From positions 448,001 to 512,000 of the forward strand of contig JAYFMW010000030.1 of assembly GCA_042408215.1 (NCBI GenBank): a stretch of 64,000 nucleotides of DNA, given 5' to 3'. This document shows positions 10,513-55,943 of the stretch, piece by piece. Origin of the DNA: Microcoleus sp. (GTDB lineage Bacteria; Cyanobacteriota; Cyanobacteriia; Cyanobacteriales; Microcoleaceae). The translations under genes and the position numbers were made by a program. Numbering within the stretch: the first letter of the stretch is position 1; each line of letters opens with the position of its first letter. The notes under the pieces are model-generated. The model did no database searches. It was not told the DNA's origin and saw nothing but the letters and a program-made list of their open reading frames with translations.

Positions 10513-11961
10513 CGAAAAACGAGCCCGGCGTGCCCCTGGCTTTTAGACATGGGGAGGAAGTCGGTAGCGGTTTCAACCGCCTTCTATATTTTTTTTGGTA
10601 TTGGTTGTTTTGTAGTCATATTTGCATCTTCAATCAAGAATACTATGCTAATATAAACCAAGGAGGAAAACAGAATGTATGGATGCCAGCAAAATCTAAT
10701 TAGTCCAGACAAAGACTTAAAAGCAGTCTTAGAATTCTTGTGTAGTGAAGCCTCAAAGTTAATTAATTGTGGAACTTATTATGCCAGACAACTATTCTTC
10801 AAAACTGGAAGGATACCGAGTAGAGCCAAGCTACATAAAGTTTTAGGAACGGACAATCGAAACATTCATTATAAGGCTTTCTATTCAGATACCGCACAGC
10901 AGATACTGACTAGCATTGCTGAATCTTTCCAATCCTATTTGGGCTTGCTAGCTGGAATCAAAGAAGGGACAGTGACGCAACATCCAAGACTTCCTGGATA
11001 CAGACAAGGCGGATTAGCACTTGTAACTTTTACAGGTAGATCGGTCAAATTAAAAGATGGAATGTTGCGATTTCCTTTAGGGAAGCAAGTTAAAGCTTGG
11101 TTTGGCATAGATGCGTTCTATCTGACGATGCCATCTAACTTAGAATATGCTTCTATTCGAGAGTACAGAATTTTACCCAGAAACGGATGTTTTTATCTAG
11201 AATTGGTTGACCAAAAAGAAGCTGTTCAATCCGATGTCAACGTTGATTCTGTATTGATGATCGACCACGGGATGGACAACTGGATAACTTGTGTCAGCAA
11301 TATTGGAACTTCATTCATCGTAGACGGAAGGCATCTCAAGTCCATCAACCAAGGCTACAACAAACGAGTGGCAACCTTGAAGTCGGTCAAAAACAATGGA
11401 TTCTGGTCGAAAAGACTGGAACGGCTGACCGAAAGCAGAAATAGAACAATGCGGGATGCAGTTAATAAAGCTGCTCGTAAGGTCGTCAATCATTGTGTAT
11501 CATCCAAGATTGGTACAGTCATATTTGGATGGAACAAGAATCAGAAAGATTCAATAAATCTGGGTACAAAGACCAATCAAAAATTTGTTCAGATTCCCAC
11601 GGGCAGGTTAAAAGATAGAATTGCTCAACTCTGCGAACAGTCCGGAATCAAATTCGTCGAAACCGAAGAATCATATACTTCAAAAACTTCTTTTCTCGAT
11701 GCCGATCCACTGCCTAAAATCGGCGAAAAACCCGAGGGGTGGAAAGCTTCGGGAACGAGAATTAAACGTGGATTATATCGGACGGGGAAGGGGTGGCTAA
11801 TTAATGCAGATTGCAATGGTTGTGCAAATATTGGCCGTAAAGTAGCAACAATACTTGGACTCGATCTAAGTGGAGTTGGTAGAGGTGACTTGTCAGCACC
11901 TGTAAGACTTAAATTGTGGAATACATGAATCCCCACGCCTTTAGGCATGGGGAGATGTCAA
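10513..11961 (+). mobile_element. Non-autonomous IS200/IS605-family element (tnpB only)
   Basis: Left-end hairpin CCCCTGGCTTTTAGACATGGGG after TCAC; right end GAATCCCCACGCCTTTAGGCATGGGGAGATGTCAA; no TSD; no tnpA. Confidence 0.85.
10675..11928 (+). CDS. tnpB: RNA-guided endonuclease TnpB (zinc-finger-less cyanobacterial type)
   Basis: RuvC-I MIDHG, IFGWN at the usual RuvC-II position, ETEESYTSK, RIKRGLY, RuvC-III INADCNG. Confidence 0.93.
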   Translation: MYGCQQNLISPDKDLKAVLEFLCSEASKLINCGTYYARQLFFKTGRIPSRAKLHKVLGTDNRNIHYKAFYSDTAQQILTSIAESFQSYLGLLAGIKEGTVTQHPRLPGYRQGGLALVTFTGRSVKLKDGMLRFPLGKQVKAWFGIDAFYLTMPSNLEYASIREYRILPRNGCFYLELVDQKEAVQSDVNVDSVLMIDHGMDNWITCVSNIGTSFIVDGRHLKSINQGYNKRVATLKSVKNNGFWSKRLERLTESRNRTMRDAVNKAARKVVNHCVSSKIGTVIFGWNKNQKDSINLGTKTNQKFVQIPTGRLKDRIAQLCEQSGIKFVETEESYTSKTSFLDADPLPKIGEKPEGWKASGTRIKRGLYRTGKGWLINADCNGCANIGRKVATILGLDLSGVGRGDLSAPVRLKLWNT

Positions 11962-11981
11962 TACCAACTTAAAACTCAGGA
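11835..11981 (+). ncRNA. Predicted TnpB omega-RNA (3-prime scaffold plus guide TACCAACTTAAAACTCAGGA); 5-prime end uncertain
   Basis: Overlaps the tnpB 3-prime end and right end; homologous to protein-free copies at 38827 and 55655. Confidence 0.7.
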
Positions 11982-12049
11982 CTCTTCGTCCTGATGACCA
12001 ACTTTAAGACAGTTGTATCAATTGTATCAATTAGGAACTCAAACAATTA

Positions 12050-12472
12050 ATGTTAGATCAAACCCAACTCCAATACACCACCAACTCGCCTTCAACTGCC
12101 GGCACATCCCCGGATCAAACCCGCCCCCTAGCTTTGACAATTGCTCAAGCTGCCGAAGACCGCAAAGGCGATAATATCCTAATGCTGCGGGTATCAGAAG
12201 TATGCTACTTAGCAGACTACTTTGTGATTGTGACCGGATTTTCCAACGTGCAGGTACGAGCCATCTCCCAAGCGATCGCAGACCAAGTAGAAGAGGAATG
12301 GCAACGCTTACCACTACGCACAGAAGGGCAATCAGATGCAAGTTGGGTGGTGATGGACTATGGCGATGCGATCGTCCACATCTTGAAACCTCAAGAACGC
12401 GAATTCTACAATCTAGAAGCGTTCTGGGGGCACGCCGAACGCATTAACTTTTCCACCGAGCCCAGAGGATAG
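12050..12472 (+). CDS. rsfS: Ribosome silencing factor (iojap)
   Basis: AAEDRKG, ADYFVIVTGFSNVQVRAI, WVVMDYGDAIVHI, FYNLEAFW. Confidence 0.95.
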   Translation: MLDQTQLQYTTNSPSTAGTSPDQTRPLALTIAQAAEDRKGDNILMLRVSEVCYLADYFVIVTGFSNVQVRAISQAIADQVEEEWQRLPLRTEGQSDASWVVMDYGDAIVHILKPQEREFYNLEAFWGHAERINFSTEPRG

Positions 12473-12476
12473 CTAT

Positions 12477-12977
12477 GTGAAAGACGCTTCTGTTTCTATT
12501 TGTCCTGTTCCCCAAGAACAGCGACCGGTCAATGAATACCAAGAACTTAAAGAATCCTGGTTTTTTAGTTGGGGAACTCTCCATTGGCCCCAGTATCTGG
12601 CAAAACTTGCTTGGGTATGGGGTTGGAGTTGCCTGGTATCCGGGCCGATAGCTGCGGCTAGCTTTTCTCCTGTCAAATATCCAGCTCAGTTTGTCCTGTG
12701 CGCGATAGCTGGTGCCGGTTTTATTCTAGGATTAGCTTTGCTACGGCTGTACTTGGGTTGGTTCTACGTGCGATCGCGCCTATCCAATCCCACAGTCGTC
12801 TACGAAGAATCCGGCTGGTATGACGGTCAATCCTGGACTAAAACTCCCGAAGTCTTACTTCAAGACCAGTTGATTGTCAACTATCAACTAGAACCCATTC
12901 TGGGGCGTCTGCGGCAGACATTTTATGGTTTGGCGGTATTTCTGGTTGCCGGGGGAGTAATTTGGAATTGTTTGTAA
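12477..12977 (+). CDS. CGLD27/Ycf36 family membrane protein (DUF1230)
   Basis: CPVPQEQRPVNEY, RLYLGWFYV, YEESGWYDGQ. Confidence 0.9.
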   Translation: MKDASVSICPVPQEQRPVNEYQELKESWFFSWGTLHWPQYLAKLAWVWGWSCLVSGPIAAASFSPVKYPAQFVLCAIAGAGFILGLALLRLYLGWFYVRSRLSNPTVVYEESGWYDGQSWTKTPEVLLQDQLIVNYQLEPILGRLRQTFYGLAVFLVAGGVIWNCL

Positions 12978-13102
12978 TCAGGAATGGAAACAGGGGAGTT
13001 ATGAGTTATGAGTTTTGGCAGCAAGAATCGACTTTGTAACTGGCAACTGGCAACTCATCAATTACAACTCACAACTCATCACTTCCTCAGCTCAAATCTA
13101 CA

Positions 13103-14083
13103 ATGAAAAATCTAAAATCTAAAATTGATATGACAAGGGGAAAACGAACCCAAGCTCCAGAACTGGAAGTCAGATTGCTGCGCGAAGGTATTGTGGAATC
13201 TAAGCACCGCGTCCAGGCCGCTGTCTGTGACAATCGTGGCCGCGTTCTGTCCGTTGCTGGTAACTCGGAAACGGCCGCCTTTGTCCGTTCTTCACTCAAG
13301 CCTTTTCAAGCTTTGGCTGTGACTGCAAGCGGCACCTTAGAACGCTACGAACTCACCGATCGAGATTTAGCGATTATTTGCAGTTCTCATCAAGGTACGA
13401 TCGAGCAATCGCGACAAGTATTTAACGTCCTGTGGCGCTGCGACATTGACCCCTCTAAACTTCAATGCCCGATTCCAGAAGGCAAAAAAAGTTCCCTGCA
13501 ATACAACTGTTCCGGCAAACACGCCGGAATGCTCGCTGTCTGTCAGCAACTGCACTGGCCGCTGGAAAGCTATTTGCGCCGCAAACACCCCGTCCAGCAG
13601 CTCATTTTGGGCAAGGTGGCTGACTTACTGGCAATGCCAGCCGAAGAGTTTATCAGCGCTCGCGACGACTGCGGCGCTCCTACCTATTTATTGCAGTTGG
13701 GGCAAATGGCCTCTCTCTACGCTAAGTTGGCCAGTGGCGACAATGTGGATATGGAGCGGATTGTCCGCGCTATGACTCATCACCCGATGATGGTGGCTGG
13801 TGAGGGCAAATTTGACACGGAACTGATGCAATTGACCCAAGGGGAGTTGGTGAGCAAGTCCGGTGCCGAAGGCGTGCAGTGCATTGGCCGGGTTGGCGAA
13901 GGCATGGGTTTGGCAATTAAGGTCACTGATGGGGCAAAGCGGGCTCAATATGCTGTGGCGATTCATTTGCTCAAGCAGTTGGGGTGGATCACTGCGGCGA
14001 TCGCCGAAACTCTCTCGGAAACTTACCTCACTCTCAGCGAGTTCAAGCGCTTGGAGGTAGTCGGCGAAGTGTCGATGCTCTAG
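13103..14083 (+). CDS. L-asparaginase II family protein (likely start 13130)
   Basis: RSSLKPFQA, CSSHQG, NCSGKHAGML, DDCGAP, SKSGAEG. Confidence 0.9.
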   Translation: MKNLKSKIDMTRGKRTQAPELEVRLLREGIVESKHRVQAAVCDNRGRVLSVAGNSETAAFVRSSLKPFQALAVTASGTLERYELTDRDLAIICSSHQGTIEQSRQVFNVLWRCDIDPSKLQCPIPEGKKSSLQYNCSGKHAGMLAVCQQLHWPLESYLRRKHPVQQLILGKVADLLAMPAEEFISARDDCGAPTYLLQLGQMASLYAKLASGDNVDMERIVRAMTHHPMMVAGEGKFDTELMQLTQGELVSKSGAEGVQCIGRVGEGMGLAIKVTDGAKRAQYAVAIHLLKQLGWITAAIAETLSETYLTLSEFKRLEVVGEVSML

Positions 14084-14200
14084 TACAACCCTGATTGTCA
14101 GCCGATTTCAGCAACCCCTCCCACAATCTCAAAAGTTTTTTTGATTTAGGGGTTGCTATTTTCAGAAAGATGTGTTTATATTAGAGAAGAGATAAAGCGA

Positions 14201-14277
<77 letters not shown>

Positions 14278-14351: not shown

Positions 14352-14428
<77 letters not shown>

Positions 14429-21175: not shown

Positions 21176-21682
21176 TTATTCAAGCACTTTGATGATGGTG
21201 GCGATCGGGATAAACAGTGAAAGCTCATCATCTTCTAACGGTATGAAACCATATTTCAAATAAAATTCTTTAGCTGGCTGATTTTTACTATCGACTATCA
21301 CCGCAAATATCCCCACCTCAGAGGAGAGGCGAACTGAAGATCGAAATGACTCCATTAACAGTTCTCTTCCTAATCCTCTCCCCTGCATTGAGATAGCCAC
21401 AGCAAGTTTGCCTAGACGTATTGCTGGTACTGGATAGCGAGGTAATCCTCTGCGATAATTTTCAGGTAAAGATTCGCGTTTAATTTCGGCCGTACTGACA
21501 GAATAATAGCCTGCTACATCTCCAGTTTCATCTTCTGGAATTGCCACAAAGGTTTTAGCGATTCCTCTTCTATCATTCTGTCGGGCATATTTTTTGAGGT
21601 ACTCATTTAACTCTGGTATACCGCAGTCAAAAGCTTCTCTTTTTAATCGGCTATCATCTATTGCACAAAAAATCCATTTCAT
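21176..21682 (-). CDS. GNAT acetyltransferase toxin (AtaT/TacT-like)
   Basis: FDCGIPELNEYL, PAIRLGKLAV, QGRGLG, FYLKYGF. Confidence 0.92.
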   Translation of the reverse strand: MKWIFCAIDDSRLKREAFDCGIPELNEYLKKYARQNDRRGIAKTFVAIPEDETGDVAGYYSVSTAEIKRESLPENYRRGLPRYPVPAIRLGKLAVAISMQGRGLGRELLMESFRSSVRLSSEVGIFAVIVDSKNQPAKEFYLKYGFIPLEDDELSLFIPIATIIKVLE

Positions 21683-21685
21683 TGT

Positions 21686-21970
21686 TTACCAGTTCCCGTA
21701 CTTTTCCTGATGCTCTTTGATAGCTGCTTTGAGGGCGGGGTTAGGTTCCGGTGGATTTTCGATGGCGGATGCAAAGATTTCCCAGTCGCGATCGCTCAAT
21801 ACAATTTGCTCTACTTCTAGAGGTGGCTGTTTGGCTGCATTCAGAGCGATTTCTAGCAGATACTCACCTAGATTCATAGACTTTGCTGCGGCTGCTTTTT
21901 CTAGGATTTCTTTATCTGTTTGGCTGAGGGTTAACTCTATTTTTGTTGGGGTATCGGTTGGTGTTGACAT
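21686..21970 (-). CDS. DUF1778 ribbon-helix-helix antitoxin
   Basis: KEILEKAAA, IVLSDRDWEIF...IENPPEPNPALK; directly upstream of the GNAT toxin. Confidence 0.9.
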   Translation of the reverse strand: MSTPTDTPTKIELTLSQTDKEILEKAAAAKSMNLGEYLLEIALNAAKQPPLEVEQIVLSDRDWEIFASAIENPPEPNPALKAAIKEHQEKYGNW

Positions 21971-22035
21971 TGTTTTGTTATAAAATGGCGATCGACTAAT
22001 TTTATTGTAGCAATATTGATGAGAGCAACATTGGC

Positions 22036-22599
22036 TCATCTCTGAATTACCCGATTCACTTCTGCTAACGGCAGTTCTAAAGATTCTGCAATTTGTTCGG
22101 CACTCAAACCCAGTTTTGCCAATTTAGGGACTGCTTCTAACTTAGCTTTGCGTTCGGCTTCTTCTAAAAGTTTTTGATAATTTGGATATCCTTTGACATC
22201 ATTATCACTTTTATTGTCTGATGCCGATCGTTCTGACGAAAGTGATTCAGATTCTTGTGCGGGATTGGTACAAAAATTAATATGCCCAATTTGTACCGGA
22301 TTCCCACTATTTGAGAAATTTACTATTCGCCATCTTTCTACCGTAGCGCGAAAGTTTGATTTGTTAATGTCTGCGCCCAGCGCAGTTGAGAGTATCTGCC
22401 ATAGCTCATAGCTAGCATCCCTTACATGACCCTGACTACAGTGATATTCTTCCGCAATTTGCGCGTATTTCCGATTATTCAAGACTCCTTTGAGGATTGC
22501 TACTTGCAGGGTGTCGAGGTGTTTGCCAGTCTTGGAAAAAACTAGCTCATCAATAGACTTTAAGACATCTTGGGTATCCATCAGCATATCTGAATACAA
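22036..22599 (-). CDS. Stand-alone HTH protein (cyanobacterial NB-ARC N-terminal-type HTH plus Rpn-like C-terminal helix)
   Basis: YAQIAEEYHCSQGHVRDASYELWQILS...INKSNFR; KLEAVPKLAKLGLSAEQIAESLEL. Confidence 0.7.
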   Translation of the reverse strand: MYSDMLMDTQDVLKSIDELVFSKTGKHLDTLQVAILKGVLNNRKYAQIAEEYHCSQGHVRDASYELWQILSTALGADINKSNFRATVERWRIVNFSNSGNPVQIGHINFCTNPAQESESLSSERSASDNKSDNDVKGYPNYQKLLEEAERKAKLEAVPKLAKLGLSAEQIAESLELPLAEVNRVIQR

Positions 22600-23503: not shown

Positions 23504-25030
23504 CTACGCGCCGACCGCTTCCTTGGCCGCGTACAACACCTCAGCATTAATTAGAGCAATCCCCCGATCGCGCGCGAACTTCTCAGTATTTCGCTTGACT
23601 TTCCCGCGCACAAAACCAGGAATTTTATTCAACTCAGCTTGTCCATCCTTCGTCCAATTCATATCAGAATCAGCCGAAATTCCCTTAGTAATCACTTCCT
23701 TGGTATCGTGGCCACCGAAGATTTCCAGCAAGTGGTCTTCCATGCCCAAAGTAAAGGAATTGTACACCAAATCTACGCACTGATTCGTGCCTTCATAACC
23801 CAAAAATGGCTTGTAGCCGATCGGGAAATTTTGGACGTGAATCGGCGCAGCAATTACCCCGCAAGGAATATCCAACCGCTTACCGACGTGACGTTCCATT
23901 TGTGTACCGAAAATTGCGGAAGGTTCCGCTTTCGCGATCGCATCTCCGATCGCCCCATGATCCTCCGTCACCAGCACTTCATCGCAATACCCTTTTACCT
24001 CTTCCCGGAACCAATCAGCATCGTGTTTGCAGTAGGTTCCTGCCCACACAACGTGAATTCCCATCTCGCGAGCCAAAATCTTCGTCATCGCCGCTGCGTG
24101 GGTATTATCGCCAAATACGACCGCTTTTTTGCCTGTTAAGTTTTGGCAGTCGATCGATCGCGAAAACCAAGCAGCCTGCGACACAAATCGAGTTTGTTGA
24201 TCGATGAAATCTTCATAATCAACATCAGCACCTTGAGCATTCAAAACTTGCTGAATCTTGCGAATACAGCGCGCAGTTTCCACCACACCCATCGGTGTAA
24301 TATCCACCATCGGCGTGCCGAATTCTTTTTGCAAATACTCCCCGGCCATCATCCCTAATTCCCGATAAGGAACCAGATTAAACCAAGCGCGCGGCAGTCT
24401 TTTCAAGTTATGAACCGAAGCACCTTCGGGAATAACTTCGTTGACTTCTATGCCCAAATCTGCCATCAAACGCTTCAACTCAGTGCAGTCGTGCTGGTTG
24501 TGGAAACCCAGCGTTGACATCCCGATGATGTTGACAGATGGTTTTTCGCTTTTGGCTTCTACTAAATCGCCTTTTTTGCGGGATTTGTTGATGTAAAATT
24601 GGACGATTTGATCCAAAGTGCGATCGGCAGCTTGGAGTTCGTTTACGCGATAATGGTTAACATCCGCCAGCAAAACATCGCCTTTGGCTTCCAATTGAGC
24701 TCGCTCCACGAAGTTTTCCAAGTCTTCTTGCAGAATGCTGGAAGTGCAAGTCGGAGTCAACACGATTAAATCTGGGTGTTCTTCTCTGTCTTTGCGGGTG
24801 ATGTTGTCCACCACTCTTTCTTGGGAACCGCGCGCGAGTACGTGTCTGTCAACGACGCTGGTAGTTACCGGGGTGAAGTCCCGTTCCCTCTCCAGCATGG
24901 AACGCATGACGTTAAAATAGTCGTCTCCGATGGGTGCGTGCATGATCGCATGGACGTTTTTGAAGGAAGTCGCAACGCGCAGAGTGCCGATGTGGGCTGG
25001 CCCTGCGTACATCCAATAAGCCAATTTCAT
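23504..25030 (-). CDS. chlB: Dark-operative protochlorophyllide reductase subunit B
   Basis: [28 protein letters not shown]-terminal [15 protein letters not shown]. Confidence 0.98.
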
Positions 25031-25404
25031 AAAAAATACTCGGTAAGTGGGAAACTCAGAGTTTTTAGACCTGAGAGGAAAACGACTTGGCGGTTTTAAC
25101 CGCCTTGAATCCCCTCCGGCGAGGGGTGGAGGGGTATGGTTGCCCCTCCGGTGAGGTATGGTTGCCTCGATCTCCCTTGCGGGGTAATGTTAGCTTCGCC
25201 AATGTTATAAGAGCTTTTTAGACCTGCAACACTGCCTCAGTGACTTTAAGACTGTTTAATTGCAGATGACAGGGCTCTTTACTAGCTTCGCATCCACAGG
25301 GTGTCATGACTCAAATAACGTAGACCTCTAAGGTCTTAGGCTGGTCAGCACAGCTTGCTCGATCGCTCTAACAAGCTCAGTCCCTTTAGGGCTGAGTTAC
25401 TGAC
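25031..25404 (-). mobile_element. Protein-free IscB-type IS200/IS605 mini-element
   Basis: Minus strand starts GTCAGTAAC plus hairpin and ends TTCCTCTCAG...CTGAGTTTCC...TTTTTT immediately before ATGA of chlB; removal restores AGGAAAAATACCT-ATG. Confidence 0.85.
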
Positions 25405-25425
25405 AGGTATTTTTCCTGATGCTGG
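25170..25425 (-). ncRNA. HEARO / IscB omega-RNA with 5-prime guide from flanking DNA
   Basis: Ordered motifs GACCAGCCTAAG, CTACGTT, GACACC, GGATGCG, GCTAGT, CTGTC, TTAAACAG, CAGTG, AACATTGGCGAAGC. Confidence 0.85.
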
Positions 25426-25749
25426 TTGAGATTTGCCCGATCGGGCTATTACTGCTAGATTTTAGAGTTGTTTCTGATTCTCTCACCGGATGAATCCTTT
25501 AGAAATAATGACTTTCTGAAGATTTACAGATGGCTGCGATCGCTCAAACCCTTTGCTGAACAGGGATTTGACTCCACACTAAAACAACTTTGCGGTTGTT
25601 TTACTGCAATAATTCTTAATTTATTGTCAATTTTCCGCCTGTCACCGCCCGATGCACAATTAACAGTCAAAGTCAAGTTTACTGCCAGATTTTCCGCTGC
25701 TGAGTTTGTATTGATAGTTGATATCAATTCCGGTTGCACCGTCAGGTGA

Positions 25750-25825
25750 TGTTGGCTGTTGGCTTTTGGCTGTTGACTGTTGGCTGTTGACTGTTGGCTG
25801 TTGACTGTTGGCTGTTGACTGTTGA
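25750..25825. repeat. STRR heptamer array (TGTTGGC/TGTTGAC)
   Basis: Direct reading. Confidence 0.9.
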
Positions 25826-26303
25826 TGGTTTGAACAATACCGATGCAACGGTCAACGATATGAGACAACACAAAATAGACCATTAGTGAAAGCAGAATTT
25901 TCCCATATTCTCATATTCAAATCTTCAATCTCAAATCTCAAATCCCTCGGCTGTTTAACCTTGGCAATTGGCTAATAATTCAGTCCACAAAATTAATATT
26001 TCATGACTTGCGTATTTTCATGTAATATGGTGGCGATCGGTCTTCAATCCAGCAATTTCCTGAAAGCTGAGATTGTTTTGTGGTCAGCTTGGCGATCGAT
26101 ACGCTACAGTAAACCCTTGCACAACTCCTATATTTGTAGCTTTCTTTACCCAACTGCATAACTGCGACTTCATCAACAGCGCGCGCAGACAGCAGCATTC
26201 GCCGTCTGCTGTCAAGGCCTTTCCCACACATCCCAAAAGATAACTCTTGAGCGATAATGGAGGATGATATTGACCAAGCACCTAATTTGAGAGAACTTTT
26301 TTT

Positions 26304-38633: not shown

Positions 38634-38798
38634 GAGACATTTCCCACAAATAATCTCAAGCTTTTTTACAGATATATGGGTGAAGCTTGGGGGCGACAAT
38701 TCCTATTGAAAACCTCTTATTTTATGCCCAAATGCTTCACCCTCCCCAAAAGCGGGGATCGCACTCCTACGCGATATTTTATTTGTGGGAGATGTCTA
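38634..38798. mobile_element. MITE with 19-bp TIR AGACAT(T/C)TCCCACAAATAA
   Basis: Inverted ends at 38635-38653 and 38779-38797; internal GGGTGAAGC...GCTTCACCC. Confidence 0.75.
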
Positions 38799-38804
38799 TT
38801 GAAT

Positions 38805-39125
38805 TATTGGACAAATGTGGGCAAGTTTGACACTCTCCGGGAATCAACGCCACGGAGATTCTTAAGACCACAATTTGAGTCTTAAAGGCGCTGACAAATC
38901 GCCTCTACACGCTCAAAACAACTACTAACACGAGAAGTATTGCAATTGCGCTTACTTTGATCTTTTTATACTTTCAGAGTCCATCACGCCCGCCAGTTAG
39001 GTACGCTCAACAATTCACTATTACTTGTTTAACCAGACTCGATCGAGTCGAGGCGAGCTAAATCAGGAGTTACACCTTTTGAAATTGTTTCAACACGTAG
39101 ATAGTTGTTCTTACTTGCCTTTCTA
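38805..39125 (-). ncRNA. Protein-free TnpB omega-RNA cassette with IS605 right end at 38827
   Basis: GTAGAGGCGATTTGTCAGCGCCTTTAAGACTCAAATTGTGG...GAATCTCCG...CGGAGAGTGTCAA is homologous to 11879-11961; extended -10 TGTTAGAAT at about 39130-39138. Confidence 0.75.
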
Positions 39126-39151
39126 AATATTCTAACACGAAGCCGTCAATC

Positions 39152-39268
39152 GATTTTAGATTTTAGATTTTAGATTTTAGATTTACCCCACGGATAAATG
39201 CGGGGGCTTGAGGATTTTAGATTTGGGATTTTGGATTGATTCCACGGATCAATCCGGGGGCTTGTACC
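39152..39268. repeat. GATTTTA heptamers with two CCACGGAT.AAT.CGGGGGCTTG hairpins (IS605 end/REP-like)
   Basis: Direct reading. Confidence 0.65.
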
Positions 39269-39461
39269 ACCTTTGAAATTATTGGTCAAGCGAAGGACGG
39301 GTCTTGGGCCCTGCGCTTCGCTCCGCCCATTTTTTTGGTGAATCACCCACAAACGTAGACCTTTTCACGGTCATAGGCTGGCTATCTCTCCTCAAAACGA
39401 TCGTGTTTTCCACTTTTGTCTTAAGTTCGGCGGATAGCACCAAATCAATTTAGCAGGAATA

Positions 39462-39641: not shown

Positions 39642-39829
39642 AATAGATATATCTCCTTTTTGAATTGGAGCCAAAGCCAGTCAACCATGCTTGGCCACGG
39701 CAGAATACTGGCTTTTGACTTGATAAACTTGCCCTTCTCTCAAAACATATCACAAAAAAAATAGTTTGTGATTAGATCTTATTTTTCATTTTTTTATAGC
39801 TATTTTCTACATAACACATCATTTATGGT

Positions 39830-40188
39830 AATTGGTCATTGGTCATTGGTCATTGGTCATTGGTCATTGGGGAATTGGTCATTGGTCATTGGGAATAACA
39901 ACTAACAACTAACAACTAACAACTAACAACGAACTAATGACTAATAACTAATAACTAATGACTAATAACTAATGACCAATGACTAATGACTAATAACTAA
40001 TGACCAATGACTAATGACTAATAACTAATAACTAATGACTAATGACTAATGACCAATGACTAATGACCAATGACTAATGACTAATGACTAATGACTAATG
40101 ACTAATAACTAATGACCAATGACCAATGACCAATGACTAATGACTAATGACTAATGACTACTGACTAATGACTACTGACTAATGACTA
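39830..40188. repeat. Long STRR heptamer array (TTGGTCA, then TGACTAA/TAACTAA)
   Basis: Direct reading. Confidence 0.95.
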
Positions 40189-41685
40189 CCAATCTCCCCT
40201 CGACAGCAGAAACCAGATCCCACCCAAACCCAAAACACCACCCAAAACCCCACCTTCCCACCCAAAAACAGTCCCTCCCGGTAAATGTCCCGGCGAAGCC
40301 TTAGAAGTAAAATTCACATCAGAATAGTACACCCACTGATTATTGACCCGCCAGCCCACTCGATCGCCAAACTTATCCCAAACTGTAGCATCGTAAACTC
40401 CCGGCTTTCCCCCTGACTTTAGCCACAAACCCCTTTGCACAGAAAAGCCGAACCTGCGGTGACTGTGCCGCACCCAAAGTCGATCGATAGTCTGCAAATC
40501 CTTAGCCGGAAACTTCCCAATATCTTCCTCAGTCAAATAACCTCGGGAAACTTGCTGCATCACCTCCAGCATCTTAGCAGAAGTTTCCCGATCGGCCCCA
40601 CGCCATTTTTGAGCAGCCAGCAGTCTTTCTAAGTCAGAATAATCAATCCCTTTTTCCGACTCTAACTTCACCGAAACTAGGGGAGTCTGAGTAACAGGTT
40701 GAGTCGGTACAGAAGCACTAACCACTGTCACCTCCTGCAACTTTTGTGGCAGCGGTTCAACAACAGCAGCAGGTTTTAAAGCTGACAAAACTTCCTCAGC
40801 AGACTTGTAACGGTCTTTAACATATTCCTGAATCAACTTGTCCAAAACCTGACCTAAATCCTCACTAATCTTTGTGCCTTTCGGCAAAGCCTCCCTCCAC
40901 AGCCAGCGACCTTCCAGCGGGTCATAAAGGTCATCGTGAATGTCCCCGTAGATATCCAAATAAGGCATAACAGAAGTCAACAAGCGAATGCAAGTCACCC
41001 CCAAACTGTAAAGATCGCTAGCAGGAACAGCCCTCCCGTACCGCTGTTCTAGAGCCACATAGCCGGGAGTTCCCAACTTAGTTCCCGCTTGGCTCGGAGC
41101 AGCAGCTACTACCTGTTTAGAAACCCCAAAATCTATCAGCACCAATTTGCGATCGCGATGGCGGCGGATCACATTCTCAGGCTTAATATCCCGGTGAATT
41201 ACATTGCGCTCATGCACAAAATTCAGCAAAGGCAACAAATCTAACAGCAGTTCCCTAGTTTTAATTTCGCTATAAGCACCGTACTTTTCTAACTCATCCT
41301 TTAAATTATTACCGTCTATAAACTCTTGCACCAAATACAATCGCCCGTCTTCCTCAAAATAAGAAATTAACTGAGGAATTTGCGGATTTTTCAGTTCATA
41401 AAGTCGCCTTGCCTCTTGTTCAAACAGTCGGACATACTTGTTAAAATGACTGGTATTCCGCTGAAATTCCTGCGGTGGCGACAACTGTTTGATCACGCAC
41501 AGTTCCTCAAATTTTCCGTGATTAACAGCTATAAAAGTCCTGCCAAATCCCCCGTCGAGCAGCGGTTCAGTTGCTGCATAAAGGTCTTTTAGCAGCAACT
41601 TTGAACCGCAATTAAGACAATACTTTGTGCCTGGTGGGTTCTGACGCTTGTCTCTTGGGCAATCGAGATTAAGGCAGTATGTCAT
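40186..41685 (-). CDS. Ser/Thr protein kinase with C-terminal GUN4 domain
   Basis: N-terminal CLNLDC..CLNCG, IHRDIKPEN, LIDFG; IDRLWVRHSHRRFGFSVQ, PGHLP. Confidence 0.93.
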   Translation of the reverse strand: MTYCLNLDCPRDKRQNPPGTKYCLNCGSKLLLKDLYAATEPLLDGGFGRTFIAVNHGKFEELCVIKQLSPPQEFQRNTSHFNKYVRLFEQEARRLYELKNPQIPQLISYFEEDGRLYLVQEFIDGNNLKDELEKYGAYSEIKTRELLLDLLPLLNFVHERNVIHRDIKPENVIRRHRDRKLVLIDFGVSKQVVAAAPSQAGTKLGTPGYVALEQRYGRAVPASDLYSLGVTCIRLLTSVMPYLDIYGDIHDDLYDPLEGRWLWREALPKGTKISEDLGQVLDKLIQEYVKDRYKSAEEVLSALKPAAVVEPLPQKLQEVTVVSASVPTQPVTQTPLVSVKLESEKGIDYSDLERLLAAQKWRGADRETSAKMLEVMQQVSRGYLTEEDIGKFPAKDLQTIDRLWVRHSHRRFGFSVQRGLWLKSGGKPGVYDATVWDKFGDRVGWRVNNQWVYYSDVNFTSKASPGHLPGGTVFGWEGGVLGGVLGLGGIWFLLSRGDW

Positions 41686-42452: not shown

Positions 42453-43904
42453 GTGACACCAAAACTTCAGCCCTCTCCCACTCCAAATTCCCGCAAAGAA
42501 TCTCCCAAAGTACCCTGGTTCGAGCGGTTCATAGCCTTGGTAGCCCTAGGAAATTTAAGCCTAGTATTATTTGACATCAGCTACGTCCCTTGGCGAGATT
42601 TCTACTTCCGGAAACTGCCAGTCCTTACTCAAATATACGATCCATTTAAAGGAATTAAACCTCACCGAGACACCCAGAAATATCTAGAAACCTTAGAAGA
42701 CTTAAAAATTCAAGTAGTGCAAACAGGCTTACCCTCTCCCCAAGTAGCAGCTAAATTGCAGGAACTAGACAATCTCAGCGCGAAAATGATCGACGAAGAC
42801 CCCTTTCGAGTAGCATCAAAAAGTGGTAGCCTCGAAAAAATCAAAGACCGGCTCCGCCAGCGTATTCCGAACCCACAAGACTCCGCCAAACAATCATTCC
42901 AAACATTCTGGAGCCAAGACTATTTAACCAGAAAAGGCTGGCCACAAGAAATCAACTGGTTTGAGCGCAAAATCAAGCCATTAATCGCCATCAACTATTT
43001 CCGCGAAATCGGAGAAAACGGGGAATTCATCGACAATTTTTGGGTCATTGACCTGCCATTTATTGCCATATTTGCGATCGAATTTCTAGCCCGCACCTAC
43101 TTCATCAGCCGCCGCCACCGCAGCGTCACATGGCGGCAAGCCATGCTCTGGCGGTGGTACGACATCTTCATGCTCCTCCCATTCTGGCGGTTATCGCGAG
43201 TATTAACCATCACAATTCGCATCCACCAAGCAAAAATGCCCGATCTCCAACCCATACGCAGTCAAATCAGCCGAGGTTTCGTCGCCAACTTCGCCCAAGA
43301 ATTAACCGAAGTAGTAGTAATTCAACTGATCAACCAGATGCAACAATCCATTAGCAGCGGCGAACTAGCAAAGCAACTTTTCCAATCTCAAAAACAGCGA
43401 TATTTAGACATTAATAATATCAACGAAATAGAAGCGATCGCCACCCATTTAGTTCAAATCACCGTTTACAAAGTCCTCCCTCAACTCCAGCCCGACCTAG
43501 AAGCTCTCCTCCGCTACAATATAGAAATGTTTCTCAAACAATCCCCCCTCTATCAAGGATTCCAGCAAGTACCCGGACTCGGAAACCTCCCCGCACAGCT
43601 AGCAGAGCAATTAGTTGCAGAACTGTCAAAATTAGCCACACTCGGCCCGCAAAATGCCTACGAAGCCTTCAAAATCGCTAGCGAAGATCCCAAAGGCATC
43701 CAACTCTCAAACCAGCTAGTCCAACATTTCGGGCAAGCTTTAGGAGCTGAACTGCAACAGCAGCAAACCTGGCAAGAAATACAACTACTACTGTGCGACT
43801 TCCTAGAAGAGTTCAAAATCAACTACATCCAGCGGTTGAGCGAAGAAGACTTCGAGAAAATTTTAGAACAAGCCAAAGAACTGCAACAAATAGCTCCGCG
43901 TTAG
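42453..43904 (+). CDS. Conserved hypothetical membrane protein
   Basis: 483-aa ORF with transmembrane segments and WRWYD motif. Confidence 0.8.
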   Translation: MTPKLQPSPTPNSRKESPKVPWFERFIALVALGNLSLVLFDISYVPWRDFYFRKLPVLTQIYDPFKGIKPHRDTQKYLETLEDLKIQVVQTGLPSPQVAAKLQELDNLSAKMIDEDPFRVASKSGSLEKIKDRLRQRIPNPQDSAKQSFQTFWSQDYLTRKGWPQEINWFERKIKPLIAINYFREIGENGEFIDNFWVIDLPFIAIFAIEFLARTYFISRRHRSVTWRQAMLWRWYDIFMLLPFWRLSRVLTITIRIHQAKMPDLQPIRSQISRGFVANFAQELTEVVVIQLINQMQQSISSGELAKQLFQSQKQRYLDINNINEIEAIATHLVQITVYKVLPQLQPDLEALLRYNIEMFLKQSPLYQGFQQVPGLGNLPAQLAEQLVAELSKLATLGPQNAYEAFKIASEDPKGIQLSNQLVQHFGQALGAELQQQQTWQEIQLLLCDFLEEFKINYIQRLSEEDFEKILEQAKELQQIAPR

Positions 43905-43909
43905 GAAGC

Positions 43910-44247
43910 AGTCATTAGTTATTAGTTATTAGTCATTAGTCATTAGTCATTAGTCATTAGTCATTAGTTATTAGTTATTAGTTATTAGTTATTAGTTATT
44001 AGTTATTTGTGAGTTGCTCCCAATAACGAATGATCCGTTACCAATAACCAATAACCAATAACCGATGCCCCATGCCCCATGCCCCATGCCCCATGCCCCA
44101 TGCCCCATGCCCCATGCCCCATGCCCCATGCCCCATACCCCATGCCCCATGCCCTATGCCCCATGCCCCATGCCCCATGCCCCATGCCCCATGCCCCATG
44201 CCCGATGCCCCATGCCCCATGCCCCATGCCCCATGCCCCATGCCCCA
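43910..44247. repeat. STRR arrays (GTCATTA/GTTATTA, ACCAATA, ATGCCCC)
   Basis: Direct reading. Confidence 0.95.
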
Positions 44248-44381
44248 CTCCCCCTCCGCGAATGGGCGAGATCCGAAGAGGTTTGTCACTGGGCGGGCGA
44301 TCGAGCTAAACTGAGGACTGAGGAAAACTTCGATCGGAGGAAGCCTTCAAACTTCTTGGAAGAAATTGTTTCACCTAGGAG

Positions 44382-45647
44382 CCAGACTCAATCGCCAAAA
44401 AGCTTGCTAAACTTATCCATAGTCAATCGTAAAAACAGGTTTGTATGTTTGCCATCAAGCGAGCGCTCAAATTGAATAACCAAGCTTGCACCTTGCTGGC
44501 AAAACACGCAGGATTCAGACGGGTCGTCTTCAATATGGGACTATCCCTGCGGACTCAAATGTATAGCGAAGGCAAGCTTACCGACTCAAAAGTAATTAAC
44601 GAAGTCAAAAAAGTTTTGACCAATCACGTCAAGAAACAACCTGAATTTAACTGGATGAATCAACTATCCAGCCGAGTATATCAAAACGCATTAATCGACT
44701 TGAAAGATGCGTTCAGTCGTTACAGAGCCGGAAAGTCAGGTCATCCAAGATTCGCAAGTCGCAGAAACGGGCAATCCTTCACAGTAGATTCATCAAACGG
44801 AAAAGTTTTACTTGCTGCTGGAAATACAATTAAAATTCCCACCCTCGGAACATTCCGACTGCACGAACCACTGGAAAGTAGCTTTGTTTCCCAGACTTTC
44901 ACCCTGTCAAAAGAAGGAAGTCGATGGTTCGTCTCCTTCTGCGTTGACGCCGAACGCTTGCCCGGGAAGCAACTGCAAGAATCCGTAGGCATTGATGTCG
45001 GAGTTAAATCCTTTGCCACCCTGTCAAACCATCAAGTGTTTGATGCGCCCAAACCGTTAAAGCAAGCGAAAACCAAGCTAGCAAAATTACAACGCAAGGC
45101 TTCAAAACAGGTAAAAGGTTCCAACAATCAGCGCAAAACTGAAGATAAAATTAGCCGCATTCACTCGCGGATATCCGCGATCCGCTCAGATTTCCTCCAT
45201 AAGTTAACAACTTACTTGGCGAAAACTTTCAAGCGAATTAAGATAGAAGACTTAAACGTGAAGGGAATGATGGCTAATCATAAAATTGCCGGAGCCATAT
45301 CGGACTTAGGTTTTTACAAATTCAAGCGCCAACTCGAATACAAATGTCAGATGTATGGAGCAAATTTAGTGCTAGTAGACCAATGGTTTCCTAGTTCCAA
45401 AACCTGCTCCAACTGCGGACACAAAAAAGATCTGCCACTGAGTCTCAGGACTTATGATTGCCCTGTTTGTGGTAGATCGATTGACAGAGACTTAAATGCC
45501 AGTTTGAACATTTTAAACTGGGAACCTTCGGCTTGAGGGGGATAGCCTGCCGATCTTGGGATGGCCGACCACCCAACAGCGCAGGAAGTAAACACTAATT
45601 GTTCAAAGTCTAACTTTGAACAAGTCTAGATAAGTTTTATAGAGCAG
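44382..45647 (+). mobile_element. Non-autonomous IS607-like element (tnpB only) in the rimP leader
   Basis: AG dinucleotide at both junctions (44380-44381, 45646-45647); right end GTCTAGATAAGTTTTATAGAGCAG; removal restores TAGGAGTGGGTCAAGCCCACTTTTTTT. Confidence 0.75.
44445..45536 (+). CDS. tnpB: RNA-guided endonuclease TnpB with intact D-E-D triad and zinc finger
   Basis: VGIDVG, IEDLNVKGM, CSNC..CPVC, DRDLNASLNI. Confidence 0.95.
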   Translation: MFAIKRALKLNNQACTLLAKHAGFRRVVFNMGLSLRTQMYSEGKLTDSKVINEVKKVLTNHVKKQPEFNWMNQLSSRVYQNALIDLKDAFSRYRAGKSGHPRFASRRNGQSFTVDSSNGKVLLAAGNTIKIPTLGTFRLHEPLESSFVSQTFTLSKEGSRWFVSFCVDAERLPGKQLQESVGIDVGVKSFATLSNHQVFDAPKPLKQAKTKLAKLQRKASKQVKGSNNQRKTEDKISRIHSRISAIRSDFLHKLTTYLAKTFKRIKIEDLNVKGMMANHKIAGAISDLGFYKFKRQLEYKCQMYGANLVLVDQWFPSSKTCSNCGHKKDLPLSLRTYDCPVCGRSIDRDLNASLNILNWEPSA

Positions 45648-45670
45648 TGGGTCAAGCCCACTTTTTTTTG
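45648..45670 (+). promoter_or_regulatory. rimP leader hairpin with T-tract
   Basis: (G)TGGG-TCAAG-CCCAC-TTTTTTTT upstream of rimP. Confidence 0.6.
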
Positions 45671-45761
45671 TTGCATCGATCGCAGGAAAAGGGCTGAGTA
45701 CATCACACTTGCGAGTCCAAGACCTGATTTTTCCTTGCTTGTTTTAACTCAAAAATTCCAT

Positions 45762-52000: not shown

Positions 52001-52246
52001 GCTGTGGCTGGATGTATGGTACTCTCTGGCAAAGTCATCCGTAACTGCAAGGTGCGGGTGCGCCGGGGCAACAATGTCATTTACGAAGGTATCCTAGACT
52101 CCCTGAAACGGATGAAGGAAGATGCCAAGGAAGTCAATGCTGGCTACGAATGCGGTATTTCCTTGAGTGGCTTTAGCGACTGGGCGGAAGGCGACCTGAT
52201 TGAAGCCTACCGGATGGTGACTAAACGCCGGACTCTATCTCAATAG
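49079..52246 (+). CDS. infB: Translation initiation factor IF-2
   Basis: [31 protein letters not shown]. Confidence 0.99.
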
Positions 52247-52471
52247 TTGCTAGTGATGAGTTTTGAGTTTTGAGTTGGAAGAGAAGTTTTGAGTTTCGGA
52301 ACTAAATTGCCGTGAGCTCGTAACTACTCTCTTCTCTCAATACTGCAAACCTCATCACTCGCAACTTGTTTTTTACTCAAAATTTCCAACTTCAAATTCA
52401 CAACTCAAAACTCATCACTTAAAATTCGCTCCCTCTCTGACTCGCTCACTCAAAACTCAAAACTATTTAAA

Positions 52472-53086: not shown

Positions 53087-53110
53087 AAGGCAGAATTATC
53101 AACTAGGGGG

Positions 53111-53233
53111 CATTGGGAATTGGGAATTGGGAATTGGGCATTGGGCATGGGGCATCGGGCATGGGGCATGGGGCATCGGGCATTTGTAACAAATGACTAA
53201 TGACTAATGACTAATGACTAATGACGAATGACT
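53111..53233. repeat. STRR arrays (TTGGGAA/TGGGGCA, ATGACTA)
   Basis: Direct reading. Confidence 0.9.
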
Positions 53234-53239
53234 TAAATT

Positions 53240-53253
53240 GTATTTAAAGATAC
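53240..53253. promoter_or_regulatory. Possible NtcA site GTA-N8-TAC
   Basis: (T)GTATTTAAAGATAC about 200 bp upstream of a small gene. Confidence 0.35.
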
Positions 53254-53451
53254 TGCGGATTTAAGGCTATTGTGCTAGAAAATCAATACTTATTAAGAGA
53301 GATTTATTGAGATTATTAAGATTTAATATCAAATTTTCAATGGGAGGTTATTTGTATTTTTTATTGGCTATTTGGAGAGGAGAATATATAATGGGAATTG
53401 TCCAGGTAAGATTTAAATCCTCATAGGGGATTAAAACAGAGGTATAAAAAT

Positions 53452-53676
53452 ATGGCGAATTCACGAACGATCGCACCAGAACCTCAAGTCGCAGAGCCGA
53501 TCGATCTTAAGGAAGATTCTCAAATCTGGGCCAGTCTCAAAAAAGCGATCGGTGCTAGTTCTGGATTTCAACGCTGGCAGCTAGAACTCAATTTTGAGAG
53601 TCAGCAGGCTCCGGTCAGCATCGACCACCAGGTTCGCTCCTATCTGCGGGAAACTTTAGAAACTTTGGCTTACTGA
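53452..53676 (+). CDS. Conserved small cyanobacterial protein
   Basis: GAGG RBS; WASLKKAI.ASSGFQRW...YLRETLETLAY. Confidence 0.8.
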   Translation: MANSRTIAPEPQVAEPIDLKEDSQIWASLKKAIGASSGFQRWQLELNFESQQAPVSIDHQVRSYLRETLETLAY

Positions 53677-53858
53677 GTGCAGCCAGACTAGCTCCTGTAA
53701 CGGTTTGTAAATTTTACCGTCAAATTCCGCCGAATCCCCTTCAAGATGCGATCGTGAGTGCGTAACTTCGGAACTCAAATTGCAGGGGAGAATATTTCTG
53801 CTTACGGAGTCTTGACTAATTCAAACACCTTAATTCCAACACCAGCGAAAAAATCCAT

Positions 53859-54026
53859 AAAAAAAGCCGGAAACCCCCGACGTAAAACGAATGCGGGGGA
53901 ATTCGACTCACCCGTATCTTACCCAAACTCTTGATAATAGGACTGAAGCAAAATAACAGTAACAGCGCTTGACTAGCGGTGAAGAAAACCGTCAAAATCA
54001 ATCTGATACAAATATTTTGTACCATC
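53859..54026 (-). mobile_element. Possible decayed 3-prime end of an IscB element
   Basis: End hairpin TTCCCCCGC...CGGGGGTTTCC then a T-run and ATGG; upstream FTAS resembles IscB C-termini. Confidence 0.35.
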
Positions 54027-54063
54027 AGTCCTATTAGACATTTTAGAGCAAAAGTTAAGCAAA

Positions 54064-55247
54064 ATGCATTTAGTGATAGTTCAGTATGCAGTCGATTACC
54101 GAGAAGCCTATGAGCAGCTAAAGGTGGCCGTGAAACATACTACGCTCAAAAATATTCTGTTGATACCGTTACCGAGATGGGGAAACGAGTTGAGTCAGTA
54201 GCGGTGATTTGTGCATGACCTCCAGAACCTTACAATCAGGTTCTAGAAAACGGGGTACGGGCGATAGGTGCAGGATTTAATCAACAATTGAAGGTTCAAG
54301 AATTAATCGAGTTAATAGCGCAGCAAAATCCAACTCATCTCGTCATGCGCACACCTGTTAGAGAAGTTTTTAATTGGGCTATCACAAATAAAGTTAGAAC
54401 GATCGCGACCTTTGCCGAATCTTTTTTTACAACCACTTGGCGCAATAAAATCCGCAACTATGTACTTGCTAAGTTATTGAATAACAAGCAAATAGAATGG
54501 GTTGGTACTTACGGTCTTACTTCTTCCCTACTCTTCCAAGAAATCGGAGTTAAACCTAATACAATCATGCCTTGGGATTTTCTCATAGATAGTGACCCAG
54601 GCTCTTTGCCACCCAAAGAACCACCAGATAGCGTCAAAAGTTTGAAATTATTTTAGGCTGGTTTGTTAATACAAAGTAAGGGGGTTGGTGATATTTTAGA
54701 AGCGGTAGCAAAGTTGAAAGACCAGAATATATCAGTGCATTTAAAACGGGCTGGTAAAGGCGAAGAAGAGTTTTTGACCTAGCGAGTGGAACAGTTGCAA
54801 ATTCAAGATTCTGTAGAGTTTCTCGGAATAGTGCCAACTCAGACTTTAGAACCTTTAATGAGAGAAGCTGATCTTGTCCTAGTTACTAGCAGGCACGAAT
54901 ATCCAGAGGGTTTTCCCCTGACAATTCAGCACGCTTTGCGGACGAGAACGCCGATCGTAGCTTCGGATCGCCCGATGTTTACAACCCACTTGCACCCCGG
55001 CGCTAATGCCATGATTTTTGAGGCTGGGAACTCTTAGGCTTTAGCAGAATGTATTGAAAAACTGGTTTCCGATGCACCGCTTTACCGCAATATTTCTCTA
55101 GGTTCTCATGCAACGTGGCATCAGTTGCGTCTGCCCGTCAAAGGGGTACAACTGATCGATCGCTGGCTGGATGATGCTCCTGAAAGCAAACAGTGGTTAT
55201 TTGAACAACGACTAGCTTCTGGGGCCTACAACTCAAGACCAAGTTAA
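54064..55247 (+). pseudogene. GT4-type glycosyltransferase pseudogene
   Basis: MHLVIVQYA.DYREA start, SRHEYPEGFPL motif; several frameshifts and TAG stops at 54654 and 55035. Confidence 0.85.
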
Positions 55248-55275
55248 TAATTAGGTCGCTCTAATTAAACTTGAG

Positions 55276-55466
55276 TAGGACTTACAGCATATTCCATGTA
55301 TATGTGGTACACACAAGAAGAGAGACGCGAGTAAGGTGCGTTACCACCCGTCAATCTGCAATCTTTATCAAATATGAAGCCGCGACGCACCCTACCGATT
55401 AAGACCACATAATATAGCTGCTACTGTACTTCATGAACCACCGAATATGCTGTATATCTAGTCCTA
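55276..55466. mobile_element. MITE-like element (AGGACTTACAGCATATTC / GAATATGCTGTA..AGTCCT) with internal REP-like unit
   Basis: Inverted ends. Confidence 0.6.
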
Positions 55467-55576
55467 AGCTTTTGTGCATTTAAATTGAATGTAAAAAAAT
55501 AATCTAAGTCTTGTGGGGAGTAGGGGTTGGGCGTCTCGCCCGCCCTGAATATGCAATTTAAATGCGTGACAGCTTA
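55465..55576. mobile_element. MITE with TAAGCT....GCATTTAAATTG TIR
   Basis: Inverted ends; abuts the truncation point of the minus-strand glycosyltransferase. Confidence 0.7.
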
Positions 55577-55654
55577 TCATATAACCCCTTTGCGGACGCA
55601 GGCATAACCGAGGAAAAGGACGTTAATTTCCTCTGAGGGCGGTTTGTGGGATTG

Positions 55655-55943
55655 TTGACACTCCCCGGTCTGAAGACGCGGGGATTCTTAAGGACAAACA
55701 TTGGGGGATGAATCCGCCCAAAGTTGAATGCTTAAAGGGTAAGTCAGATACCCACTACCCACTCGCTCATGACTGAGTCTATGGCTACTTTTTTGCCTAA
55801 CGGCTTGCAACTGTCGGGTTTTTCACCAACTAAGTTTCAACAACTTTATCAAACCAAAATCAGTTTGTCAAGATGGGCAGGATAAATCCTGCAACGCCCT
55901 TTCATCCCTGGACTAAAGTCGCAGGGTTTTCAGGGTATTTCTT
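55655..55943 (-). mobile_element. 289-bp protein-free IS605 mini-element (left end, promoter, omega-RNA, right end)
   Basis: Inserted after TTAT without TSD; left-end hairpin CCCTGCGACTTTAGTCCAGGG; right end GAATCCCCGCGTCTTCAGACCGGGGAGTGTCAA. Confidence 0.9.
55843..55871 (-). promoter_or_regulatory. Sigma70-type promoter inside the mini-element
   Basis: TTGACA-17 bp-TAAAGT with extended TG. Confidence 0.7.

Follow-up and report, generated by a model that had tools for sequence, protein, structure and literature searches.

Five IS200/IS605-family insertions, three of them protein-free, within 45 kb of a Microcoleus genome

We analysed a stretch of 64,000 nt (in the following called the window) from the genome of Microcoleus sp. 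(GCA_042408215.1, contig JAYFMW010000030.1, positions 448,001 to 512,000 of the forward strand). It belongs to contig C30 of the genome that we number G000, an assembly of 7.36 Mb in 30 contigs. Protein profiles delineated a cyanobacterial gene content with chlB, CGLD27, a GUN4-kinase gene and the rimP-nusA-ylxR-infB operon, and an Rfam scan of the window yielded one HEARO RNA and two tRNA-Met genes. Among these genes lie five insertions of the IS200/IS605 family, two of which carry only a tnpB gene (element 1 and the tnpB2 element). The other three are protein-free elements of the PATE type, two with a TnpB-type scaffold (PATE38 and PATE55) and one of the HEARO/IscB type, inserted at chlB. 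PATEs are considered to be internal-deletion derivatives that keep only both transposon ends and a guide-RNA scaffold. Congener genomes are referred to by further G-numbers; twelve of them were searched at the chlB site.

The edges of four elements were determined from empty sites in related genomes and those of PATE38 from an alignment of its family (Table 1). Comparison of empty and filled sites showed for the HEARO PATE, PATE55, element 1 and the tnpB2 element that a 4-nt motif adjoins the insertion, that no target site was duplicated and that terminal inverted repeats are lacking. For PATE38, the adjacent motif was read from the family flanks only, which show TCAC(C). Subterminal imperfect hairpins are present at both ends, in common with full-length elements. 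The five insertions represent different families and four different classes of target-adjacent motif (TAM). An earlier reading of this DNA, made from the sequence alone, had listed two tnpB-only elements, two protein-free TnpB cassettes and a protein-free IscB omega-RNA. Its coordinates and cataloguing were largely correct: profiles support both tnpB-only elements, whose sites are empty in congeners, the three protein-free elements were all borne out, and the motifs TCAC, TTAT and ATGA had been named correctly. The coordinate 55943, at which the list ended, coincides exactly with the left-end boundary of PATE55. Its statement that TnpA is missing was confirmed as well, with none of the genome's 20 matches to PF01797 (TnpA) inside the window (C30:448001-512000).

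Table 1 Features of the five insertions and their junctions, in window coordinates.
Feature	Position	Strand	Basis and remarks
tnpB-only element 1, 1449 bp	10513..11961	+	Empty site in G008 and G005; ends read from sequence
tnpB1 coding sequence, 417 aa	10675..11928	+	PF01385 57.8 bits; NF040570 144.8 bits (cut-off 100)
Predicted omega-RNA scaffold of element 1 with 16-nt flank guide	11757..11977 (scaffold to 11961)	+	Alignment A1, covariation test
chlB start codon, first three bases of the ATGA target motif	25028..25030	-	Junction read
Protein-free IscB-type PATE, 374 bp	25031..25404	-	Between ...AAATACCT and the chlB ATG; boundaries of the repeated unit
HEARO/IscB omega-RNA scaffold	25184..25404	-	RF02033 135.7 bits, cut-off 83, E 4.9e-28
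Predicted HEARO guide, native chlB leader with AGGAAA Shine-Dalgarno-like motif	25405..25420	-	Sequence; putative guide role
PATE38, protein-free, TnpB-type right-end scaffold	38827..39337	-	Six-copy family alignment; nhmmer 208 bits
Unrelated ~145-bp repeat nested in PATE38	39145..39290	.	In the window copy only, absent from other PATE38 copies
tnpB-only element 2 (tnpB2 element), 1266 bp, boundary ambiguous by 2 nt	44382..45647	+	Empty site in G005; flanks of family copies
tnpB2 coding sequence, 363 aa, zinc-finger domain	44445..45536	+	PF01385 104.1, PF07282 86.1, NF040570 294.4 bits
Native terminator-like hairpin and T-run directly after the right end of element 2	45647..45669	+	Hairpin present at the G005 empty site
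Predicted PATE55 guide, former 3′ coding sequence of ORF 55902-56525	55639..55654	-	Sequence
PATE55, protein-free, 289 bp	55655..55943	-	Empty site in G008, G003 and G002

Element 1 is preceded by TCAC (10509-10512), its right end closes in ...GATGTCAA, and its flanks are joined directly in G008 and G005. It is present as a single copy in this genome, where the nearest relative has 71% DNA identity, and copies with 86-95% identity occur at other loci in five congeners. On contig C20, an autonomous element with tnpA and tnpB shares 85% identity with element 1 at the left end. In the encoded TnpB1, PF01385 was the only Pfam match and a match to the zinc-finger (TNB) domain was not found; judged by eye from the translation, the RuvC D/E/D motifs appear intact.

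The left flank of the tnpB2 element ends in ...GGAG and its right end in ...GCAG; at the same places, other copies of the tnpB2 family show ...RGAG and ...GCAG. The empty site in G005 reads ...CCTAGGAG/TGGGTCAAGCCCACTTTTTTT (here and below, the slash marks the junction) and already carries the terminator-like hairpin, so the element landed at the foot of this hairpin, which would serve as guide in the tnpB2 omega-RNA. The distance from the right end to the rimP ATG (45762; RimP profile positions 1-151) is 114 nt. What the sequence-only reading had placed in the rimP leader is actually this right end, upstream of the native terminator. At the homologous site in G009 (contig C139; corresponding to 44336-45740), only the last ~211 nt of a tnpB2-type element, comprising right end and scaffold, lie upstream of rimP, while the closer relative G005 is empty there. 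This remnant could represent a deletion derivative formed in place or a renewed insertion at this target. An open reading frame (ORF) at 44065-44475, considered as the N-terminal part of TnpB2, was rejected as a translation of CCCCATG heptamer repeats.

Both TnpB-type PATEs close in ...GAGTGTCAA at their right ends. The left end of PATE55 follows TTAT (55947-55944), and position 55654 is joined directly to 55944 in G008, G003 and G002. There are 15 other full-length copies with at least 90% identity in the genome and 14 with about 75%. The ends of PATE55 resemble those of dozens of full-length tnpB elements, with 94-100% identity over the left 72 nt and 87-92% over the right 138 nt. The ORF into which it inserted (55902-56525, minus strand) is conserved, encodes 207 aa without a Pfam or NCBIfam match, and had its last 25 codons swapped for 13 element-derived codons.

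PATE38 is flanked by TCAC at its left end and has five other copies in the genome (82-91% identity). The six family members align from TCAC(C) to the common right end, and their flanks are unrelated. At this site, five congeners have 75-98 bp compared to 861 bp here. Only TTG-started ORFs of at most 60 aa overlap the region 38827-39345, and tblastn detected only a 14-aa TnpB tail (38865-38906). Both cassettes had been described as related to the scaffold of the tnpB gene at 10675. This is true of the architecture but not as a close kinship, because PATE38 has 54% identity over the last 141 columns and PATE55 derives from a different tnpB family.

The surroundings of PATE38 are rich in further repeats. 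Its left end (39293-39345, ~50 nt) recurs beside zinc-finger-type tnpB genes of another clade, e.g., at C30:529609 and C28:374290; thus, PATE38 combines ends seen with different nuclease families. The repeat nested within it carries GATTTTA heptamers and two CCACGG..CCGGGGG motifs and recurs dozens of times in the genome at 96-99% identity, also in tandem arrays such as the five at C20:664098-664837. It looks like a recently active miniature inverted-repeat transposable element. A dispersed repeat of ~165 bp (38635-38800) adjoins PATE38 on its guide side and occurs in ~8 genome copies with 74-82% identity; its plus strand ends in GTGGGAGATGTC, resembling an IS605 right end.

At chlB (ORF 23504-25030, minus strand; PF00148 and PF08369), the HEARO hit spans the full RF02033 model (positions 1-211) above the gathering threshold. 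The scaffold is followed by a 153-nt segment with the other transposon end and then by chlB; no IscB ORF adjoins it, and 25031-25404 contains only ORFs of at most 45 aa. The repeated unit, defined by comparing genome copies, starts with the 5′ end of HEARO and stops at the base preceding the chlB ATG, in agreement with the proposed position of a protein-free IscB omega-RNA at the chlB start. The position follows from the ATGA target motif. The empty site ...CAGGAAAAATACCT/ATGAAATTGG, with the junction ...AAATACCT/ATGAAA, was found in six congeners compared base by base and in G008. In the remaining congeners the two flanking alignment pieces abut at chlB; hence, the insertion is absent from 12 of 12. 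By this insertion, the native AGGAAA motif was displaced 374 nt away from the ATG.

The HEARO element starts with 5′-GTCA, and ATGA follows its end. For cyanobacterial IscB/ISC elements, 5′-GT termini and N/ATGA target sites have been described in the accessible parts of Kapitonov et al. 2016 (PMC4810608). The chlB-side end matches the ends of iscB elements. It also resembles the left end of element 1, which fits the polarity given in the consulted sections of the preprint by Meers et al. (10.1101/2023.03.14.532601), which equates the omega-RNA end with the right end as defined by TnpA. A possible IscB remnant in the window, suggested previously, did not hold up. A profile built from 16 IscB proteins of this genome gave a best E of 0.64 against all six-frame fragments of the window, PF14239 had no match there, and neither tblastn with one IscB nor the genome-wide PF14239 search revealed a remnant in the window. 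The candidate ORF 25524-25883 (minus strand) crosses heptamer repeats and lacks a Pfam match. A transposon-end hairpin (GGCGGTTAAAACCGCC; 25089-25104, minus strand) followed by a weak T-run, situated between the HEARO scaffold and the start codon of chlB, scored as terminator-like and could attenuate chlB transcription.

We then placed the window in the context of the whole genome, which contains 70 HEARO matches (64 above the cut-off), 31 PF14239 matches adjoining 25 HEARO copies, 20 PF01797 matches (19 above the cut-off) and 219 tnpB-like loci, of which 174 measure 900 nt or more. The weakest HEARO hit (32.6 bits) was excluded from all counts, yielding 69 elements: 41 short and protein-free, 25 iscB-linked and three unclassified. 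By an nhmmer profile, rather than a covariance model, we identified 97 TnpB1-type right-end scaffolds that reach the right end, 39 adjacent to tnpB and 58 orphans. The notion of few nucleases therefore applies to the window but not to the genome, with its 219 tnpB-like loci, ~25 iscB-linked HEARO copies and 20 TnpA matches.

These numbers also bear on whether five elements in 45 kb mark a special hotspot or a locally coordinated system, an idea prompted by their spacing and by the co-orientation of four of the five with the upstream host gene. Across the whole genome we find a similar load, with approximately one element per 20 kb (219 tnpB-like loci, 58 orphan scaffolds and 69 HEARO elements in 7.36 Mb), and the five belong to different families with four TAM classes. 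We regard a hotspot as very improbable, the least likely of the explanations considered here.

Five independent IS200/IS605 insertions within 45 kb, none of them self-mobile and three of them PATEs acting by the known biology of the family, is probably the right description of this locus. The insertions have exact edges, target motifs and intact scaffolds, and the partner genes are located elsewhere in the genome. A Y1 transposase (TnpA) encoded elsewhere would insert the elements by their 4-nt motif and leave the target unduplicated. Indirect signs of such mobilisation are sites that are polymorphic for the insertion among congeners and copies with 90-99.7% identity. The scaffold, together with the flank as guide, would direct TnpB or IscB of a sister element to cut the empty site after excision, and recombination would then restore the element, according to the homing model of Meers et al. 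The absence of any ORF above 60 aa from the three PATEs and of tnpA from the window implies reliance on enzymes encoded elsewhere, so the suggestion that the RNA-only elements borrow their enzymes in trans is plausible. Such dependence is already in print: the Discussion of the Meers preprint (10.1101/2023.03.14.532601) has PATE-encoded omega-RNAs requiring TnpB in trans, and the relevant part of Kapitonov et al. 2016 (PMC4810608) can be cited along with it.

The integrity of the scaffolds is central to this interpretation. We aligned 20 right ends, seven tnpB-linked and 13 orphan (alignment A1), for which RNAalifold predicted four helices with 16 pairs. At these positions, 93.1% were paired versus 76.0% in shuffles, and the covariation score of 0.563 (0.242 in shuffles) was reached by none of 500 shuffles, with slid controls at 0.07-0.20. 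Compensatory changes were present in 11 of the 16 pairs. Helix 4, the right-end hairpin, covaries, and so do helices 1-3 outside of this terminal TnpA hairpin across the orphan lineages. Alignment A2 shows hardly any sequence variation, with compensatory change in three of 42 pairs. The median score of the 41 short protein-free HEARO elements was 130.5 bits, compared to 133.1 for the iscB-linked ones (n = 25), and all but one of the 41 exceeded the cut-off. Decay without covariation, which would have spoken against the cassettes, was thus looked for and not seen, pairing and covariation both exceeding the shuffles; an extra constraint on the scaffold of PATE55 was not seen either.

The orphan cassettes of A1 (e.g., C5:345356-345546 and C20:243841-244020) share a non-coding 5′ module, GAGCGTACCTA..CTGG...GATGGACTC.GAAAGC...AAAAGTAAGCGCAATTGCA. 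Over the final ~85 nt, these cassettes hardly differ from the right ends of distinct tnpB elements (C14, C3). This composition suggests that they are modular or recombinant PATEs.

Several observations weigh against PATEs that act through their guides. Transcription of the scaffolds, loading of the nuclease in trans and homing are steps that we infer. Within the PATE55 family, identity is 93.4% inside the scaffold and 95.3% elsewhere; since the scaffold is no better conserved than the rest, recent copying instead of selection on an RNA could explain its integrity. The terminal hairpin is also a DNA signal for TnpA, so that its covariation may not reflect RNA function. For PATE38, a close tnpB-linked scaffold was not found in the genome, the identities being 50-56% over the last 141 columns.

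With respect to transcription, the expression data consist of contigs only, without starts, ends or strand, from metatranscriptomes stored as contigs and unlabelled runs. In two RNA-library runs of one study, a contig each bridges chlB into the element up to 25201 (17 differences over 902 nt in one, 12 over 665 nt in the other, ~98% identity), and two unlabelled runs show the filled chlB site with 0-4 differences. No contig joins 25030 directly to 25405, so an empty allele was not observed; as contigs drop rare variants, this carries no weight in either direction. As libraries can contain DNA, the bridging contigs are at most a weak hint of co-transcription of chlB and the element, and this point belongs with those against a guide function. 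No promoter was found inside the PATEs; near the HEARO element, the scan returned three consensus matches versus 1.8 ± 1.2 expected, located in the flank and at chance level.

The promoter result, the identity values of PATE55 and the isolated scaffold of PATE38 would all be expected if the cassettes were mobilisable but inert as guides, that is, if TnpA copied both ends with the omega-RNA as a passenger, intact because it is young. Across PATE55, its 75% sub-family and the parent elements, however, the last 139 columns have ~85% identity versus 33% upstream, where the sequences may be non-homologous. Conservation over 139 columns exceeds the known requirement of TnpA for end recognition in IS608 and ISDra2. 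Covariation of helices 1-3 outside of the terminal hairpin and the similar scores of protein-free and iscB-linked HEARO scaffolds also argue against passengers. We therefore consider inert cassettes possible but unlikely, and favour PATEs acting by the known family biology.

The HEARO element at chlB raised the question of where such elements insert. Pairing the HEARO copies with their other end assigned 34 of 69 to one end family, and all 34 junctions read ...T/ATGA. After one pairing was dropped (C6:211266, end shared with a neighbouring element), an ORF of at least 60 codons began at that ATG in 25 of the remaining 33. Twenty of the 33 were start-like, defined by an ORF of at least 100 codons and fewer than 40 open in-frame codons in the upstream flank (binomial p ~8e-9 for this first family alone). 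A second end family of 21 elements, defined post hoc, contained 10 start-like cases, and the ends of 14 of the 69 were undefinable. Overall, 30 of 54 were start-like, as opposed to 5.2% of sampled ATGA sites (n = 1016) and 16% of sites outside long ORFs. HEARO-type elements in this genome thus mostly sit directly before start codons, in sense orientation. We saw no mention of this bias in the consulted text of the Meers preprint or of Kapitonov et al. 2016, in which the term "start codon" did not appear, and a literature search on HEARO and ATGA returned no relevant paper. We consider the bias a modest new result.

One explanation would be that HEARO elements are kept at start codons because a sense position in the 5′ untranslated region supplies a host promoter for the guide, which lies outside the element and hence would be transcribable only from such a promoter. 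The ribosome-binding regions of dozens of genes, including chlB, would then be replaced by the U-rich end of the element. We think this scenario is rather improbable. If true, guide-RNA mini-transposons would have rewired translation starts across the genome, possibly under control via IscB on the leader RNA.

The preference for start codons and the displaced AGGAAA motif at chlB could also be taken to indicate a co-opted library of regulatory guides, whose complexes bind host loci such as chlB and rimP in the manner of exapted TnpB relatives of the TldR type. The guides themselves are at odds with this possibility. Each of the five 16-nt guides matches the genome perfectly at one place only, its own flank, and no TAM-flanked site with up to two mismatches exists elsewhere in the genome for any of them; complementarity to a host locus beyond the own flank, as in exapted regulators, was thus not found. 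This pattern fits homing, in which the target exists only after excision, and leaves a regulatory library without targets. In the filled allele, moreover, the element separates the TAM from the guide-matching sequence, and the rimP item is located upstream of a terminator. The absence of the chlB insertion from the 12 congeners marks it as recent and not as a conserved regulatory device. A regulatory library, as had been proposed from the sequence, is therefore very improbable, and we return to the PATEs acting by known family biology.

Related systems help to place these elements. In TnpB omega-RNAs (reRNAs) of the ISDra2/IS608 type, the scaffold shares sequence with both the right end and the 3′ end of tnpB, the 3′ flank serves as guide and the TAM is the target motif adjoining the left end. 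The elements described here differ in that TnpB1 lacks a TNB match and that in the orphans a shared non-coding module replaces the coding half of the scaffold. TldR is an exapted protein of the TnpB family with an omega-RNA-like guide; its guides match host promoters and its nuclease is inactive. Here, in contrast, guides match their own flank only, and the RuvC D/E/D motifs of TnpB1 look intact. Compared with the HEARO family (RF02033), the full model is matched, but chlB takes the place of the HNH/IscB ORF.

The closest parallel are the PATEs of Geobacillus stearothermophilus, which the available sections of the preprint (10.1101/2023.03.14.532601) portray as protein-free IS200/IS605 derivatives with left end, right end and omega-RNA, dependent on TnpA and TnpB of other elements, with the flank as guide and the empty donor joint as target. 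Set against that account, the present case differs in its cyanobacterial host, a far larger load, four TAM classes together and a PATE38 without a close nuclease-linked scaffold in its own genome, and it is known here from sequence alone. ISC1-1_MA and related ISC elements, as far as described in the consulted parts of PMC4810608, likewise start with 5′-GT(CA), insert 5′ of ATGA without duplication and occur in cyanobacteria. They also have ends in common with tnpB-only elements and run antisense to the TnpA-defined polarity. In comparison with ISC1-1_MA in that account, the copy in the window is without an iscB gene.

Further features of the window were noted as well. Arrays of 7-nt tandem repeats (1657-1837, 39826-40189, 43901-44253, 53104-53233, 61383-61633 and 62293-62656) dominate its self-matches and yield false ORFs, such as 44065-44475 and 25524-25883. 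The two tRNA-Met (CAT) genes (14201-14277 and 14352-14428) lie in a direct duplication of 109 nt with 95% identity. At 21176-22039 (minus strand), a GNAT acetyltransferase gene adjoins a gene for a TacA-like antitoxin, probably a toxin-antitoxin pair of the TacAT type.

The biology at this locus is ordinary: such behaviour of PATEs and IS200/IS605 elements has been described before, and the genome carries a heavy load of them. Because the concept is in print, the value lies mainly in the annotation. At chlB, the native Shine-Dalgarno context was lost to a 374-bp insertion that is unique against the 12 relatives searched. ATGA-target elements exceed the start-site frequency predicted from tolerance, which bears on the transcription of guides located outside the element. 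Protein-free carriers outnumber nuclease-linked ones, by 58 to 39 in one TnpB right-end class and by 41 to 25 among HEARO elements. A dispersed guide network is the normal state of an IS200/IS605-loaded cyanobacterial genome.

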